Positions 24,001-33,000 are shown, counted from the first letter of the stretch. The stretch is DNA of 64,000 nucleotides from an uncultured Gemmatimonadales bacterium (GCA_963739455.1 CAVUAK010000003.1:384001-448000); one strand, 5' to 3'. Numbers are program-made.

Positions 24001-27000
24001 CCCGGGTCGCTCCCCAGGCTGGTGGAATCGGACGCGCTGAACGAGCAGGTTGAGGCCTCGGCCGGGGCTCCGGGAACGACCAGAGACGCCGCCGGGTAGT
24101 CTTCCGGAGCCGGAACAGGTAGTGGTTCCTTCCGGATGGCCTGTCCGGGTTGTGTTATCACCATTGGTGACTGTACCTTAGCTGGCCTTCGAGGGTGCAT
24201 CTTGACGGCACCCTTGTGATTTTTTTCACAAGATCGATATCTTACCTGTGCCGCGGCGTTCCGCTGCGGCATTCGCGCGGTCGGTTCTCCCCTGAGCGGT
24301 GAAGCGATAATGCGGAAGTCGGCATGGATAATGGTGGGTGCAGGTGCGGCGGCGATCCTCGCGGTCGCGGCCATTGGACGGCCTTCCGGCGCGCAGCAGC
24401 CGGCGGCGCCGCCCAGTGTCGTGCTGGCGGCGTCCGATTCAGCGGCGTTCAAGGGTCCGCGCCAGCCGGTCTATTTCCGCCACGATATCCATGCCGGCCA
24501 GTACCAGATCACCTGCCAGTACTGCCACTACTCGGTGGCGGTGAGCAGCGAGCCGGGCATTCCATCCATGCAGACCTGCATGGGGTGTCACCTCATCGTG
24601 GGCGGCAGCGACAGCGCCAACCAGCTCCAGATCGCGAAGGTGCGGCAGGCGTGGAACGACAAGAAGCCCATCGAGTGGGTTCGCGTGCATTCCCTGGCCC
24701 GTCACGTTCACTTCCCGCATTCGCAGCACATCAAGGCAATGGGGCCGAATGCATGCGCCACCTGTCATGGCGACGTGACCCGCATGCCCCAGGTGTACAA
24801 GGTGAACAACATCAACAACATGGGATGGTGCATCAACTGCCATCTCGCGCGGGATGTGCAGCGCGACTGCACAGCGTGTCACTACTAGGAACCAGGACGT
24901 GAGGACGTGAGGACGTGAAGTCATCGAGTCTTCAAGTCCTCACGCTTTCAAGCCCCATCGGAGCCTGAATGTCCGACGAACGCGTACCGTCTTCCGACGT
25001 TTCCCGCCGGCGCTTCCTCACCGTGCTGGGCACCACAAGTGCCGGCGCGGCGGTGCTGTCCGGCTGCTCGACGGACAAGGTCGAGAAGCTGATCCCGTAC
25101 CTGGTCCAGTCAGAGGACCAGGTGCCCGGCATCCCGACCTGGTACGCGAGCACGTGCACCGAGTGCAGCGCCGGGTGCGGCCTGCATGTGCGCGTTCGCG
25201 AGGGCCGGCCGGTGAAGCTCGAGGGCAACCCTGAAAACCCGATCAACAAGGGTGCGCTGTGTGCCCGGGGCCAGGCGGGCCTGCAGGGCCTCTACAACCC
25301 GGGCCGGGTGCGCGCGCCGATGGTGAAGCAGGGCGGCACCTGGAAGGAAATCAGCTGGGACGACGCCATCGCCATGCTGGCGCAGAAGGTCGGCGCCGCC
25401 AGCGGCAAGTTCGCGGTCATCTCCGGGGCAGGGCGGGGCACCTTCTCGAGCTTTCTTGGCGACTGGACCTCGGCGGCCGGCGGCAAGGTGGTTCGCTATC
25501 AGGCCTTCGATCTCGAGCCGGTGCGGGCTGCGAATGCCCGCGTCTTCGGTCGGGATGAAATCCCGGCGTACGACTTTGGCGCCGCGAAGTACATCGTGTC
25601 ATTCGGTGCTGACTTCCTCGAGACTTTCGGCTCCAGCACGGAATACCAGCTTGGCTATGCGGCATCGCACGGCTTCACGCCTGGCAGCGAGCCGTCGAAG
25701 CACGTGTACTTCGCGCCCCGTGCCTCGCTCACCGGCCTCAATGCCGATGAGTGGCATGCGGTTGCTCCCGGGTCGGAGACGGCGCTCGCGCTCGCGATGG
25801 CTGGCGTGCTCCTCCAGCAGCGCGGAGGCAGCGTGTCGGGCATGCCGTCGGTCAGTGTCGACGAAGCGGCGAAGGCAACCGGCCTGTCGGCTGAGGTCAT
25901 CACGCGCCTCGCGAAGGAGTTCGCCGCGGCAAGCCCGAGCCTCGCGGTCGCGGGCGGTATTGGCAGCCAGACCGCCACGGCCACGGAACTCTGCGCCGCG
26001 GTGAACCTCCTCAACTACGCTGCCGGCAACGTCGGCCAGACGGTCCGCTTCGGGGCCGATCTTGATCACGGCGACGGCTTCGGCGCGCTCGAGGCGCTGT
26101 CGAACTCGATGAGCACAGGTGAGGTCGAGGTGGTGCTGGTGCACGAGGCCAACCCGGTGTTCACGGCGCCGCGTGCCACGAAGTTCGCCGAGTCGCTCGC
26201 CAAGGTGCCGTTCAAGGTCTCCACGTCACAGTACTTCGACGAGACGGCGGCCGCGTCGGACCTTCTCCTGCCGAGCCATCACGCGCTCGAGCGCTGGGAC
26301 GACCTCAACCCGCAGGGTGGGGTCTGGGGCTTGATGCAGCCGGTGTTGACCCCGGTGTTCAACACCCAGGCCCCGGGCGACATCCTCCTCAAGACCGCGC
26401 AGAAGGCTGGCGGCGCGCTGGCCAGGTTCTCATCGGCCACCTGGGAGGCGCAGCTCAAGTCCACCTGGCAGGCCCGGTTCCCTGGCGGAGATGCCGCATG
26501 GCGCGCGGCGCTGGCCCGGGGCGGCGTGTACCAGGCGGCGCCGGTCGTCCCGGTGAAGGTCGCCAGCGCTGACGTGTCGGCGGCGGCCCCCGCCCTCGAG
26601 GGGGCGGGCGAGTTCACCCTGCTGCCGTACGCCTCGTCCCACTACTTCGATGGTCGCGGCGCCAATCGCCCCTGGCTCGCAGAGAACCCCGATCCTGTCA
26701 CCAAGATCACATGGCAGTCGTGGGTGGAGCTGAGCCCCGAGGCGGCCGCTCGCATCAACGTGCGCGAGGGCGAGATCCTCAAGGTCACGTCGCCGCACGG
26801 ATCGGTGGAGGCGGCAGCCTACATCTATCCCGGCCTCCGCTCCGACGTCATTGCGATGCCGCTGGGCCTTGGCCACACCGAGCTCGGCGAGTTCGCGAAG
26901 GGCCGCGGGGTCAACTATCTCGACCTGCTCGGGCCGGTCTCCGGCCCGTTCATTCCATACGTGTCGGTGAAGGTGCAGGTCGAGCGCACGCACGCCTACC

Positions 27001-30000: not shown

Positions 30001-33000
30001 GTATTCCAGCAACGATGTGCCGCGCTACACCGTGAAGGGGACGGTTCCCATCGGTGGCGGTGAGGCGGACTGGGACACCGGCGATGCGTCGGTCGGCGCC
30101 TATGCATTCGACGCGGCCGTCGCCGACAAGCTCGCCAACCCCACCACCACGGGTGGCGTGGCGGCGCAGCCCGGTCCCGACCTGCCGGTCATTCCCGGAG
30201 ATCTCGCGGCGAAGGGCGATACCCTCTTCAACACCTACTGCGCCACCTGCCACGGTCACACCGGGGCGGGGAATGGCCCGGTGTCGGCCCGCATGGTGGG
30301 CATTCCCTCGCTGCTGACGGCGCAGGCCCGCGGCTATACCGACGGCTACCTCTACAGCATGATCCGGTACGGGCGGGGGCTCATGCCCAAGTACGGCGAC
30401 AAGGTGCCGAACCCCACCAATCGCTGGGCCATCGTGAATCACCTGCGGACGCTGCAGGCTCAGTCACCACTGCCGGCAGCGGCCCCGACCGGAGGCAAGA
30501 ACTGATGGCGCCGCGCAAGCTCCGCCAGCGCCTGGTCGAGGCATCGCTCGCCGGTCGCTACGACATCCACCTCGGCGTGGGCCTTGGCCTGGCCCTGCTG
30601 GGCCTGGTGCTGTTCCCGCTCGCGCTGCGGGGCGGGAATGCCGATCGCGCCTGGCAGATGTTCCACGTCAACTGGATCTACTTCACCGGCATAACCGGTG
30701 GCAGCATCGCGCTGGCGGCAGTGCACAAGGTGGTGAACGCCCGCTGGTCCGGCATGGTGATCCGCTTCGCCGAGGCCGTGGTCGCCTTCACGCCGATATC
30801 GCTGCTCGGGTGCGTGCTGGTCTACACCGTGGGCTATCCCCACATCTACGGCCACATGCAGGAGCAGTTGCCGGCGATGTCGCACGCCAAGCAGGTGTGG
30901 CTCTCTCACGGTGCCATGTTTGCCCGGATCTTCATCGGCCTGTGCGTGCTGTACTGGGTGGGCTGGAAGCTGATTCGCACTGATCTCGTGCCCGATGTCT
31001 TCGCGGCGAAGGGGCTGGCCACCGGCGGTCGGCGCGCGATGTTCGAGCGCTGGACGAGGAACTTTGACGGGTCGGAAGGCGCCATTGAGCAGGTGGAGCG
31101 CCGGCTCAAGACCCTCGGGCCGATCTACGTCATCATCTACGCTCTTGTGTTCACCATGGTGGCGTTCGACGGCATCATGGCGCTTCAGCCGCACTGGTTC
31201 TCCAACCTGCTCGGCGGCTGGTACTTCATGGGCTCGTTCCTGGGCGCGCACATGTTGCTGGCGCTCAACATGATCTACGGCGGGAAGCACCTGGGCGTCG
31301 AGGACCTGATCTCGGGCAAGCAGCGCCACGACCTCGGCAAGCTCTGCTTCGGCTTCTCGGTGTTCTGGACCTACCTGATGTGGGCCCAGTTCCAGGTGAT
31401 CTGGTACGCCAACCTGCCGGAGGAAACCGGCTTCGTCTTCGCCCGGCTCTGGGGCCCCTGGGTCCCGGTGGCCAAGGCCGTGCTCTCGGGCATGTTCTTC
31501 ATCCCGTTTGCCGTACTGCTCGGCGTGGCGCCGAAGAAGAGCCGGCTCATTCTCGGCACCATTGCCTGCGTCAGCCTCACGGCGCTGTTCCTGGAGCGCT
31601 ACCTGATGGTCATGCCCTCGGTGAGCGAGGAGAACGGTCCCGTGTTCGGCATGCCGGAACTCGGGCCGACGGCGCTCTTCTTCGGCCTCTTCCTGGCAAC
31701 GTACGCGTTGTGGGCCCGCACCTATCCCATGATCTCGCCGCGCCTCGCCGAGATCACGCTCGACCGCGAAGTGCACCATCACGAGACGGAGACCTACGAT
31801 CACGAAGACACGGACAAGGACTTCGTGCACGAAGGGGATCTGGAGAAGTAGACGTGAGGACGTGAGGACGTGAGGACGTGAAGAAGGGGGCGGAATCGCG
31901 TGATTCCGCCCCCTTCTTCGCTTTCCCCCGACCTCACGTCTTCACGTCTTCACGTCTTCACGTCTTCACGTCTTCACGTCTTCACGTCCTATTTCACCCT
32001 CTGCGCCGCGTTCACCCGCCGGATCATCGCCCGGAGTGAATCGGGCGGAAGTTCGCCGGTGACCACCAGCATGCGATCACCCCGCTGCATTGCCTCGGCC
32101 GGCCTTCCGGCCGAGTCGAGGCCACCGTCGCCGCGCCGCGAGAGAAGCTGGGTCACGTCCGCCGCTGGACCCTCGATGGTCTGGATGACCTGGCCGGACG
32201 AGAGCCGCTGCGCCACCACCATCATTGGGGAACCACCCTCACGGCTCGGCTGGACCTGCACCTCTTCCACTGGTACCCCCTCGATACGCGCAGGCGACTT
32301 CCCCGCCACATCCTGTGCCTTGTCCCATGGCACCGTGCGCCAATAGCCCTGAAGACCCGGGTCGGCGTCGGTCGGCAGCGCGGAGGTGGAGGATTCAACG
32401 GAAGGAGGTGACGAACCATCGGGTGCCGGGGCGATTTCCTCGGGGGCCGGCGTGGCAATGGCCACAGGTCGAATCGCCGGACGGCGGCTGACACGCATCG
32501 AGGCCGGAACAACGGACTGCGTCGCAAGGGGAGACACGCTTTGTCCCCCGGTCGTCGCCGTCGTCACTGCCGCGACTGCTGCAGGCGTGCCCTCGGGAGT
32601 GCGGGACGCTGATCCCACCGACCGGATCCCGTATCCCAGCCCCAGCGCGCCGACCAGGCTGGCCGCCCAGAGCGCACGGCGGTTCCGCTGCCGGCGCGGG
32701 GCGCGCGCGAGCTGGCGGCGGTTCAGTTCCTCGAGCGACACGGGAATGCGACGGGCAGGGGCGAGGGTACCGAGCAGGAGCGTCGTCTGGTCGCGCAGCG
32801 CAGCGATCGCGTCGCGCTGGCTGCTGCAGAAGCCGCAGCTGGCCAGGTGGCTCTCGATTACCACGCATCGCGACCGGCTCAGCGCCTGGTCGAGATATGC
32901 GTGCAGCTCGTCCTCAAGAATGTGCGACATCGGCCTCGTGGTAGTTCTGGCGTTCGTGCGCTTCGACCAGCCGGCGACGTGCCCTGGCCAGCGTGGTGCC

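Follow-up and report, generated by a model that had tools for sequence, protein, structure and literature searches.

In Roseiflexus castenholzii and Chloroflexus aurantiacus (PDB 6LOD, 8K9E) electrons pass from the reaction centre to menaquinol, Alternative Complex III (ACIII), auracyanin or cytochrome c551, and back to the tetrahaem cytochrome of the reaction centre. For Roseiflexus an ACIII-based cyclic loop is reported to have been shown biochemically (PMC10873879). In purple bacteria the flow is from reaction centre to ubiquinol, cytochrome bc1, a carrier (cytochrome c2, cytochrome c8 or HiPIP) and PufC. A purple-type bc1 cycle is assumed for Gemmatimonas phototrophica in the structural paper (PMC8849296). 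Structures of the reaction centre and antenna have come from work on Gemmatimonas photosynthesis, which, as far as its accessible text extends, takes cytochrome bc1 as the partner in quinol export. A phylum-wide survey reports petB for 23% of genomes, with ACIII below 10%, and leaves the question of complex III open (PMC9426454). No paper linking ACIII to the gemmatimonadotal purple-type reaction centre was found.

The act operon

The window is a stretch of 64,000 nt from G000, an uncultured Gemmatimonadales (Gemmatimonadota) genome of 83.7% completeness. Positions are along the window unless preceded by C3 or C1, which are contigs of G000. The ACIII operon reported in a preliminary description of this DNA is confirmed and spans positions 24310–31851, with six genes, actABCDEF, all on the + strand.

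actA (24310–24888) encodes a pentahaem cytochrome c subunit with five CxxCH motifs. Among PDB entries it is closest to four ActA chains of ACIII, with E-values from 2e-29 to 2e-23, and a short N-terminal hydrophobic stretch looks like a cleavable signal peptide. actB (24969–27984) encodes a Tat lipoprotein with a molybdopterin-enzyme fold and an Fe-S domain. Because the G000 actB is frameshifted, it was assessed from the intact G092 orthologue (1004 aa, 89% identical to the G000 protein), which aligns over its whole length with 6F0K_B (E 4e-147) and has matching Fe-S domain cysteines, i.e. three [4Fe-4S] motifs and one [3Fe-4S] motif. The ActB identity assigned earlier thus stands, however the 932 aa then given is a frameshift-truncated reading of a protein of about 1004 aa. 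The ActB of ACIII is characterised by the lack of a molybdenum cofactor and of the FS0 cluster. The N-terminal four-cysteine FS0 motif, CxxCxxxC...C, is kept in G000 and in all ten full-length ActB sequences examined, and is absent from Rhodothermus ActB.

actC (27984–29335) encodes an NrfD-family (PF03916) quinol-oxidising membrane subunit, whose G092 orthologue matches the ACIII ActC chains 6BTM_C, 6F0K_C, 6LOD_C and 8K9E_C at 431–457 bits. Pocket residues W68, I72, F75, P122, H125, L152, D155 and D235 correspond to W84, I88, F91, P138, H141, L168, D171 and D252 of Roseiflexus, with an offset of 16–17. The menaquinol pocket is kept in the ActC sequence, and a menaquinol:carrier oxidoreductase activity is predicted.

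actD (29335–29853) matches PF11821 (E 2.9e-44). actE (29843–30505) encodes a monohaem cytochrome c lipoprotein with one CxxCH motif and with 6F0K_E (E 3e-15) and 6LOD_E as best PDB matches; ActE is the probable electron exit of the complex. actF (30505–31851) encodes a second NrfD-like membrane subunit, for which four ActF chains are the top PDB matches, with E-values between 7e-28 and 8e-14. The products of actABCDEF thus match all six subunit types of the solved ACIII structures. With its pentahaem ActA, fused ActB, ActC pocket and monohaem ActE, the operon is assigned to ACIII on its sequence. It is intact in G018, G092, G022 and G446, and no second NrfD complex was found in the five genomes searched.

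Reaction centre genes and quinone

PufL, PufM and a tetrahaem PufC are encoded at C3:219–223 kb and score above the NCBIfam cut-offs. The cluster is purple-type, i.e. separate PufL and PufM, PufC, PuhA, LH1 and bch genes occur together. PufC has its best PDB matches in 9H19_C (E 5e-131) and 7O0U_C (E 4e-128). In the PufLM tree the sequences are nested within Proteobacteria and the host families are not recovered. The cluster lies 160–190 kb from the act operon, and there is therefore no genomic link between the two.

MqnC is above its cut-off in G000, G018 and G092, showing the presence of the menaquinone pathway, and the ubiquinone methyltransferase UbiG is above cut-off in none of five genomes. 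In the G. phototrophica structure the QA site is occupied by MQ8 (PMC8849296). The quinone of this genus is menaquinone, as judged from these genes.

Inheritance of ACIII

ActD is found in every one of 21 phototrophic Gemmatimonadota, a set from which G167 was dropped as having a single sub-cut-off PF00124 match, and in 386 of 401 (96%) sampled genomes of the phylum. The ActD tree, which takes in non-phototrophs, recovers the genus and the three host families. On this distribution ACIII occurs almost throughout the phylum by vertical descent and is no phototrophy module. Since ACIII tracks host taxonomy, the acquired reaction centre would have joined the host's own menaquinol chain.

Candidate periplasmic carriers

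A plastocyanin-like type 1 copper lipoprotein is encoded at positions 34480–34980 on the + strand (PF00127, E 5e-15), with its cupredoxin domain at 34645–34980. The best PDB matches are plastocyanins (E 7e-13). A lipobox, LAAC, is followed by an Ala/Pro linker of about 35 residues, and H94, C151, H154, M159 and the lipobox C17 are invariant in 26 of 26 homologues. The score against the plastocyanin model TIGR02656 is 66.2 bits, below the cut-off of 87.85, thus the protein is called only plastocyanin-like although the His-Cys-His-Met ligands are conserved. The alternative earlier label of auracyanin-like is dropped, as no auracyanin occurs among its 47 matches in the PDB, which comprise plastocyanins, amicyanins and pseudoazurins.

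The sequence suggests a candidate tethered electron carrier. The preliminary description had named it among its candidates. It is equally common without phototrophy (18 of 21 phototrophs vs 30 of 33 non-phototrophs), and an equal candidate had been overlooked, a class I cytochrome c that is soluble (C1:1127958–1128350). The cupredoxin was not found in G374 and G404, both phototrophs lacking a bc complex, and gave a weak match in a third, G402. No photosynthesis-specific carrier emerged, the puf neighbourhoods of ten out of ten genomes containing no cytochrome c or cupredoxin gene besides pufC. HiPIP was absent from all nine Gemmatimonadota tested. Cytochrome c matches are similar in number in phototrophic and non-phototrophic congeners, a comparison of counts and not of orthologues.

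Search for cytochrome b and Rieske proteins

The reported absence of cytochrome b from G000 is borne out; PF00033 has no match at E ≤ 1, in a search positive for G241 and for 8 of 14 reference genomes used as controls. That a divergent cytochrome b might have been missed was a concern raised at the time. A custom profile built from 37 Gemmatimonadota proteins and run on all six-frame open reading frames of G000 gave a best E-value of 2.6, and tblastn with the same 37 proteins picked up nothing but c-type haem domains in oxidases. None of the three Rieske genes is of bc type, as described before; they encode the alpha subunit of a ring hydroxylase and two fusion proteins, one joining Rieske to a reductase and the other joining it to a flavodoxin. 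No Rieske/cytochrome b operon, i.e. a cytochrome b gene with an adjacent membrane-anchored Rieske protein, was found in G000.

Two weak PF00033 matches in the genus are 522–523 aa proteins of a cytochrome b-ferredoxin fusion type, next to a haem-copper oxidase. The weak class as a whole (E 1e-12 to 1e-19, about 520–540 aa) was considered as a possible bc component and proved to be a cytochrome b-ferredoxin-FlpD fusion beside a haem-copper oxidase. It has no Rieske protein and is therefore excluded from the bc counts. A weak PF00033 class of about 340 aa, from the family sample, was left out of the classification.

Proposed route of electrons

By these searches ACIII is the sole recognisable complex-III-type enzyme in the genus and in most phototrophs sampled. 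For this reason, and because the quinone is menaquinone, the route from reaction centre to menaquinol, ACIII, carrier and PufC is the best reading, and the light-driven loop probably closes via the pre-existing respiratory ACIII of the lineage. We consider it likely, from gene content, that an ancestral ACIII took over the cycle of an acquired purple reaction centre, and it is from gene content that we infer the running of the loop, its direction, its proton yield and its carrier.

The act operon would be the host's ancestral respiratory ACIII, a menaquinol:periplasmic-carrier oxidoreductase. The proteobacterial photosynthesis cluster would have been gained without a bc1 or carrier gene and then connected to this chain of the host. 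On illumination, menaquinone would be reduced at the reaction centre with protons drawn from the cytoplasm, and menaquinol would be oxidised at the ActC pocket (H125/D155) with release of protons to the periplasm. Electrons would reach ActE by way of the [3Fe-4S] cluster of ActB and the five haems of ActA, and would go on to a housekeeping periplasmic carrier (the tethered plastocyanin-like protein and/or the soluble class I cytochrome c) and tetrahaem PufC. In the dark, those carriers would supply the caa3 and cbb3 oxidases, both encoded in G000.

The claim that the cycle must run this way keeps its route and loses its "must", since non-cyclic routes are encoded, among them the membrane-anchored 18-haem cytochrome considered below. 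Substrate-dependent non-cyclic flow is, on general grounds, unable to sustain photophosphorylation. A mostly non-cyclic scheme, in which PQQ alcohol/glucose and sulfite dehydrogenases feed PufC through cytochromes c, menaquinol exits via cytochrome bd or reverse flow and ACIII is respiratory only, is unlikely. G000 does encode cytochrome bd and two PQQ dehydrogenases with cytochromes c beside them, and it has a member of the sulfite oxidase family that comes with two cytochromes c. In Flavobacterium the aa3 oxidase that partners ACIII is described as drawing its electrons from ACIII alone (PMC8552683), however no oxidase operon adjoins ACIII here, and a carrier pool common to ACIII and the oxidases would reach PufC as well.

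Closure of the loop by another quinol dehydrogenase is very unlikely. One candidate is an anchored 18-haem cytochrome of a porin-cytochrome operon, found in G000, G018, G092 and G022; it has no NapC/NirT domain (the NapC/NirT matches are marginal and lie on multihaem repeats) and was not found in G422 and G402. The other is a Tat-Rieske orphan beside a small membrane protein that contains His (DUF6644/DUF2214-like, 3–4 helices), a pair that might act as an unrecognised Rieske/cytochrome b; it occurs in G092, G374, G448, G367 and G422. By tblastn this locus has no counterpart in G000, and around the 43 Rieske loci examined the cytochrome b profile gave no match. Rieske proteins of bc type carry disulfide cysteines, and the two full-length Tat-Rieske sequences examined lack them.

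It is highly improbable that the missing bc complex is an artefact of incomplete genomes and that these phototrophs use a Rieske/cytochrome b complex as purple bacteria do. At 83.7% completeness G000 is open to such an artefact, and the absence therefore leans on relatives. None of 12 genomes of the genus carries a Rieske-type cytochrome b, and six of the 12 have a completeness of 90% or more. The preliminary estimate that about half of the phototrophs lack cytochrome b was reproduced, with 12 of 21 having no PF00033 match and 13 of 21 no Rieske/cytochrome b operon. Twelve of these 13 are 93–100% complete and lack the operon by two profiles or have the non-Rieske fusion only, and in G092 3.54 of 3.6 Mb is on one contig; absences in the fragmented G346 and G448 may be assembly gaps. 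The identical search is positive in 37 of 38 PufL genomes with Proteobacteria titles, mostly MAGs; four of the 38 have ActD. A true operon does occur alongside ACIII in 8 of 21 phototrophs, and all three genomes in a single contig are among the eight, thus the argument for ACIII by exclusion does not extend to the latter. Where present it is of at least two unrelated types, as expected of a patchy accessory. The supplement of PMC7844134 has no rows on Rieske, cytochrome b, menaquinol or polysulfide and is uninformative on the genes of cultured strains.

Least credible of all is a decaying ACIII in G000 with cytochrome bd as the quinol exit: against G092 there are five single-base indels, one in actB near 27668 and four in actC near 28697, 28931, 28977 and 29024 (the actC four omitted from the preliminary description), and 17 comparisons spanning the photosynthesis cluster show no frame switch, but seven of nine unrelated neighbour genes at C3:419–430 kb are broken too, the actB and actC pieces are 88–96% identical to intact orthologues with the correct frames free of in-frame stops, and both genes are intact in G018, G092, G446 and G022, so that the indels look like assembly errors.

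The finding of ActD in every phototroph and in 96% of sampled genomes puts a name to the half of the light cycle that was lacking and opens it to test. It also indicates that the photosynthesis cluster is transferable and functional without its usual electron-transport partners. A Q-cycle complex moves four protons per two electrons. For ACIII one paper proposes three (PMC7439408), and with no Q-cycle the proton yield would therefore be lower, which bears on the light energy gained by common freshwater and soil phototrophs. A wider claim, that ACIII is the working photosynthetic complex III throughout the phototrophic Gemmatimonadota, even beside a Rieske/cytochrome b operon, with the plastocyanin-like lipoprotein as direct donor to the tetrahaem reaction centre, is possible but doubtful. 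One genome with a Myxococcota title shows a like pairing of purple reaction centre and ACIII. If the wider claim is true, then, taken with the Myxococcota case, a transferred purple cluster would need no bc1 or cytochrome c2 and would recruit the host's quinol oxidoreductase and carrier, as a repeated rule.

Comparison with known systems

The Qrc menaquinone reductase works in the opposite direction. ActA and ActB match the NCBIfam models of QrcA, QrcB and QrcC of sulfate reducers (QrcABCD), all below cut-off. Unlike Qrc, the present operon has a fused ActB together with ActD, ActE and ActF, which makes it an ACIII.

With purple bacteria G000 shares the type of reaction centre and cluster. It differs from them in having no cytochrome b, bc-type Rieske protein, HiPIP or above-cut-off ubiquinone methyltransferase, and in having the menaquinone pathway.

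The respiratory ACIII of Rhodothermus marinus (6F0K) and Flavobacterium johnsoniae (6BTM) gives the top scores for ActA, B, C, E and F. The order actABCDEF and the presence of caa3 and cbb3 oxidases in the genome are common to both. Here, however, no oxidase genes lie beside the operon, HiPIP is missing, the FS0 cysteines are kept and the reaction centre is a second electron sink. ActA is 192 aa long vs 444 aa in Flavobacterium, whose extra monohaem domain is missing.

The likeness to Roseiflexus and Chloroflexus lies in an ACIII of six subunits whose quinol pocket is the same, in menaquinone, in a type II reaction centre with bound tetrahaem cytochrome and, at the level of genes, in two possible carriers, a blue copper protein with a lipid anchor and a cytochrome c with a single haem. 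Unlike them, G000 has a reaction centre of proteobacterial type (L, M, split H, C) and a copper protein that resembles plastocyanin and is not an auracyanin, and its ActB retains the FS0 motif. By ActC, scored on the G092 orthologue, the ACIII is no nearer to that of Chloroflexota than to that of Bacteroidota/Rhodothermus (457, 441, 439 and 431 bits). The wiring earlier described as that of Chloroflexus would be alike in route, but ACIII is vertically inherited in Gemmatimonadota and the wiring is convergent.

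The ACIII operon

Six genes on the plus strand at window positions 24310–31851 encode Alternative Complex III (ACIII), in agreement with the preliminary description. actA (24310–24888) displays five CxxCH motifs and actE (29843–30505) displays one; the best PDB matches of both, and of actF (30505–31851), are ACIII chains. actD (29335–29853) shows the PF11821 domain (E = 3e-44). For actB (24969–27984) and actC (27984–29335), the intact orthologues of the phototrophic congener G092 match the ACIII structures 6F0K, 6LOD, 8K9E and 6BTM. Stop and start codons overlap at the actB/actC, actC/actD and actE/actF junctions. 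ActC residues W68, I72, F75, P122, H125, L152, D155 and D235 are kept at a constant offset of 16–17 relative to the menaquinol-pocket residues of Roseiflexus ActC (PMC7439408).

The preliminary description left unmentioned that actB and actC of the genome under study (G000) differ from those of G092 by single-base indels, one in actB and four in actC. The resulting pieces have 88%–96% identity to the intact orthologues. Of 69 gene-by-gene comparisons against relatives, some of them duplicates, 13 show frame switches: seven of nine unrelated genes directly downstream (contig C3, 419–430 kb) are affected, as against 0 of 17 comparisons in the photosynthesis cluster. The simplest reading is that the indels would reflect an error-rich assembly stretch.

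By eye, the ActA leader (24310–24400) resembles a cleavable signal peptide, whereas the solved ActA has a membrane helix; G402 and G241 appear to have a similar leader. A four-cysteine FS0 motif is present at the ActB N-terminus (24969–25300) in all 10 full-length sequences compared, a Myxococcota-titled genome included (stretches L079–L088, L317 and L321). Unlike these, Rhodothermus ActB has lost the motif; its retention may indicate a fifth Fe-S cluster. Short tandem repeats are found at both ends of the operon (24890–24960 and 31850–31990), with the units GTGAGGAC and the complement-like TTCACGTC.

Absence of a Rieske/cytochrome b complex

The claim that G000 has no cytochrome b or bc-type Rieske protein holds. 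The PF00033 search gives no match at E ≤ 1 (8 of 14 controls positive), a profile made from 37 relatives' cytochromes b gives a best E of 2.6, and the three Rieske genes are of soluble types. G000 is 83.7% complete and thus cannot alone prove absence. Within the genus, 10 of 12 genomes show no PF00033 match; in the remaining two the match is a 522–523 aa protein of the cytochrome b-ferredoxin-FlpD fusion type, as recognised in G260, where it adjoins a haem-copper oxidase. The fusion gene, PF00033-positive yet not a bc complex, is oriented divergently to a haem-copper oxidase operon in stretches L077 (G260), L078 (G144) and L327 (G516).

PufL together with PufM is found in 21 of the 401 phylum genomes (one sub-cut-off hit excluded). 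There is no PF00033 match in 12 of these phototrophs, one has the fusion only, and eight have a true Rieske and cytochrome b operon in two different layouts, which bears out the earlier estimate that about half lack cytochrome b. An 18-sequence lineage profile finds no match in the same 12 and recovers the G241 control. The 12 bc-less relatives are 93%–100% complete, and G092 has 3.54 of 3.6 Mb on one contig. The presence of ACIII and absence of bc is a solid observation that holds across the genus and for the majority of phototrophs in the phylum. Speaking against a bc-less state in general, both complexes are present in each of the three single-contig phototroph genomes (G218, G241 and G340) and in six of eight in their genus. 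In L069 (G387), L070 (G414) and L071 (G218) the first gene of the Rieske/cytochrome b operon encodes an oxidoreductase of flavin/Fe-S (NAD(P)-binding) type; the layout in G241 and G340 differs, with a Rieske gene and a cytochrome b-dihaem fusion.

A strong cytochrome b match is found in 63 of 151 host-family genomes (G134 included), nearly all non-phototrophs. Phototrophs, at 8 of 21, show much the same share, so the bc-less condition is the background state of the phylum and not an adaptation to light.

As a control, 50 genomes were taken from 80 named ones that contain close PufL relatives and were searched for cytochrome b and ActD. Cytochrome b is present in 37 of 38 Proteobacteria-titled genomes; ActD is present in four of the 38, all of them also with cytochrome b. 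Nine Gemmatimonadota-titled genomes, at least two of which duplicate genomes counted elsewhere, show a strong cytochrome b match in one, a weak match in two and none in six, with ActD in eight. The Myxococcota-titled G474 has PufL, an actB-C-D-E-F operon (actA not seen in the stretch covered; genome completeness not given) and a HiPIP, with no cytochrome b by the same search. Its act genes are not adjacent to puf and its PufLM form a branch separate from the Gemmatimonadota clade. G476 has the same gene content, its assignment being doubtful. The pairing of ACIII with a purple-type reaction centre has apparently arisen more than once.

Inheritance of ACIII and of the reaction centre

ActD is found in 21 of 21 phototrophs and in 386 of 401 phylum genomes, a tally that takes in the unpublished G068, G184 and G213; no conclusion rests on these or on G134. 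Over its N-terminal half, G000 ActC shares 94%–96% identity with non-phototrophic congeners, 78% with G022 and 58%–61% with phototrophs from other families. The three families (supports 0.66–1.0) and the genus together with its non-phototrophs are recovered in an ActD tree of 28 sequences.

The photosynthesis cluster at C3:206–240 kb has bch genes, acsF, three LH genes, pufL, pufM, a tetrahaem pufC and puhA as two genes; the split puhA and similar cluster content are described for G. phototrophica (PMC8849296, in part). PufL plus PufM of 16 Gemmatimonadota form one clade amid Proteobacteria (support 0.966; FastTree, 84 loci, midpoint root, alternative topologies left without test). Unlike the ActD tree, this tree does not recover host families or the genus, and G018 groups with G022, apart from its congeners G000 and G092. 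As ActD follows the hosts and PufLM does not, the cluster has moved among hosts that already had ACIII, and ACIII is, judged from these sequences, the host's own complex. The principle of such recruitment is known, since in parts of PMC5826079, PMC6664022 and PMC7842958 complex III or ACIII is regarded as belonging to the host, its recruitment being independent of that of the reaction centre.

Two PufLM/PufC types occur in the genus, one in G018 (L099) and one in G000 (L037) and G092 (L098), and the two PufC of G018 and G000 are 44% identical, pointing to probable separate acquisitions. At its C-terminus, G000 PufM (C3:219974–221395; L037:9974–11395) has a peptidoglycan-binding domain of the OmpA family (PF00691, E = 3e-22). 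The domain is shared with G092, G260 and G422 and absent from G018, G022, G241, G402, G374 and G414.

Quinone and candidate carriers

The substrate of ACIII is menaquinol (PMC7439408). MqnC scores over the cut-off in G000, G018 and G092 and under it in G260, with no match in G022, and none of five genomes has UbiG over the cut-off. Cultured strains contain MK-8/MK-9 (parts of PMC7844134 and PMC8779627), and MQ8 fits QA, QP and QF in the G. phototrophica structure (PMC8849296, in part).

The proposed cupredoxin carrier (34480–34980) is a plastocyanin-like lipoprotein with an Ala/Pro linker and a type 1 copper site, as described. It is closest to plastocyanins in the PDB, with a score under the plastocyanin cut-off; the likeness to auracyanin fails, with none among its 47 PDB matches. 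The gene is three genes past actF in G000, G018, G092, G391, G446 and G022 and not so in other families. Cupredoxin was not found in the bc-less G374 or G404. Because it is equally common in phototrophs (18 of 21) and non-phototrophs (30 of 33), it counts as a housekeeping protein. Four further small cupredoxin domains are found in G000, and a 130 aa class I cytochrome c that bears a signal peptide (C1:1127958–1128350) would be an equally good candidate. Roseiflexus employs both auracyanin and cytochrome c551 (PMC10873879, in part). The puf neighbourhoods of 10 genomes have no haem c or cupredoxin gene besides pufC, and HiPIP is found in none of nine Gemmatimonadota searched.

Directly after the cupredoxin gene is an aminotransferase/GNAT/epimerase-like/PAP2-like operon (35056–39200, minus strand), frameshifted in G000. 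Positions 39325–42303 carry a SoxY/SoxZ-like pair, then metallo-beta-lactamase-fold and rhodanese-like genes (named by eye); the SoxY/SoxZ-like stretch is kept in G018 and G092.

Other electron routes

Terminal oxidases of the caa3, cbb3 and bd types are also encoded in G000. Two PQQ dehydrogenases and an enzyme of the sulfite oxidase family are each accompanied by cytochromes c. A porin-cytochrome operon (C1:1872511–1879142; L090) has 16-haem, barrel-like, 18-haem and lipoprotein cytochrome genes and adjoins ccm genes. The 18-haem subunit, with an N-terminal anchor and no NapC domain, is present in G018, G092 and G022, and searches of G422 and G402 did not find it. Tat-Rieske genes adjoin a small membrane protein in several bc-less phototrophs; none of 43 Rieske loci has a cytochrome b match nearby, and G000 has no copy of the Tat-Rieske locus. 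A recurring operon in L304 (G092), L306 (G374), L307 (G448), L308 (G367) and L309 (G422) combines genes for a ~200 aa protein and a DUF6644/DUF2214-like membrane protein with one or two genes for Tat-exported Rieske proteins.

None of these routes is a general substitute. Because these routes exist, the wording that cyclic flow must run through ACIII is too strong; flow through ACIII is nevertheless the best explanation and quite likely.

Comparison with known systems

The sections considered of PMC9426454 give petB in 23% of 326 genomes and ACIII in under 10%, and suggest that ACIII could substitute; its electron-transport section does not tie ACIII to phototrophy, and its data sets may list per-genome content. 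PMC8849296, in the parts considered, puts quinol export in bc1 terms and does not mention "complex III". Neither "complex III" nor "cytochrome" turns up when PMC10576062, PMC12817894 and PMC8779627 are searched for these terms, and the parts considered of PMC12654162, PMC10214105 and PMC8262859 add nothing further on the pairing. Full-text searches found no paper linking ACIII to the Gemmatimonadota or Myxococcota reaction centre; papers behind subscription, among them the first descriptions of G. phototrophica and the Refojo and Marreiros ACIII surveys, are outside this scope and may already say so.

ActC scores for Chloroflexota do not exceed those for Flavobacterium or Rhodothermus, which makes the resemblance to Chloroflexus one of convergence. 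Each of the parts has been described before, as has the loop in Chloroflexota; what is new is that this loop is paired with a reaction centre of purple type.
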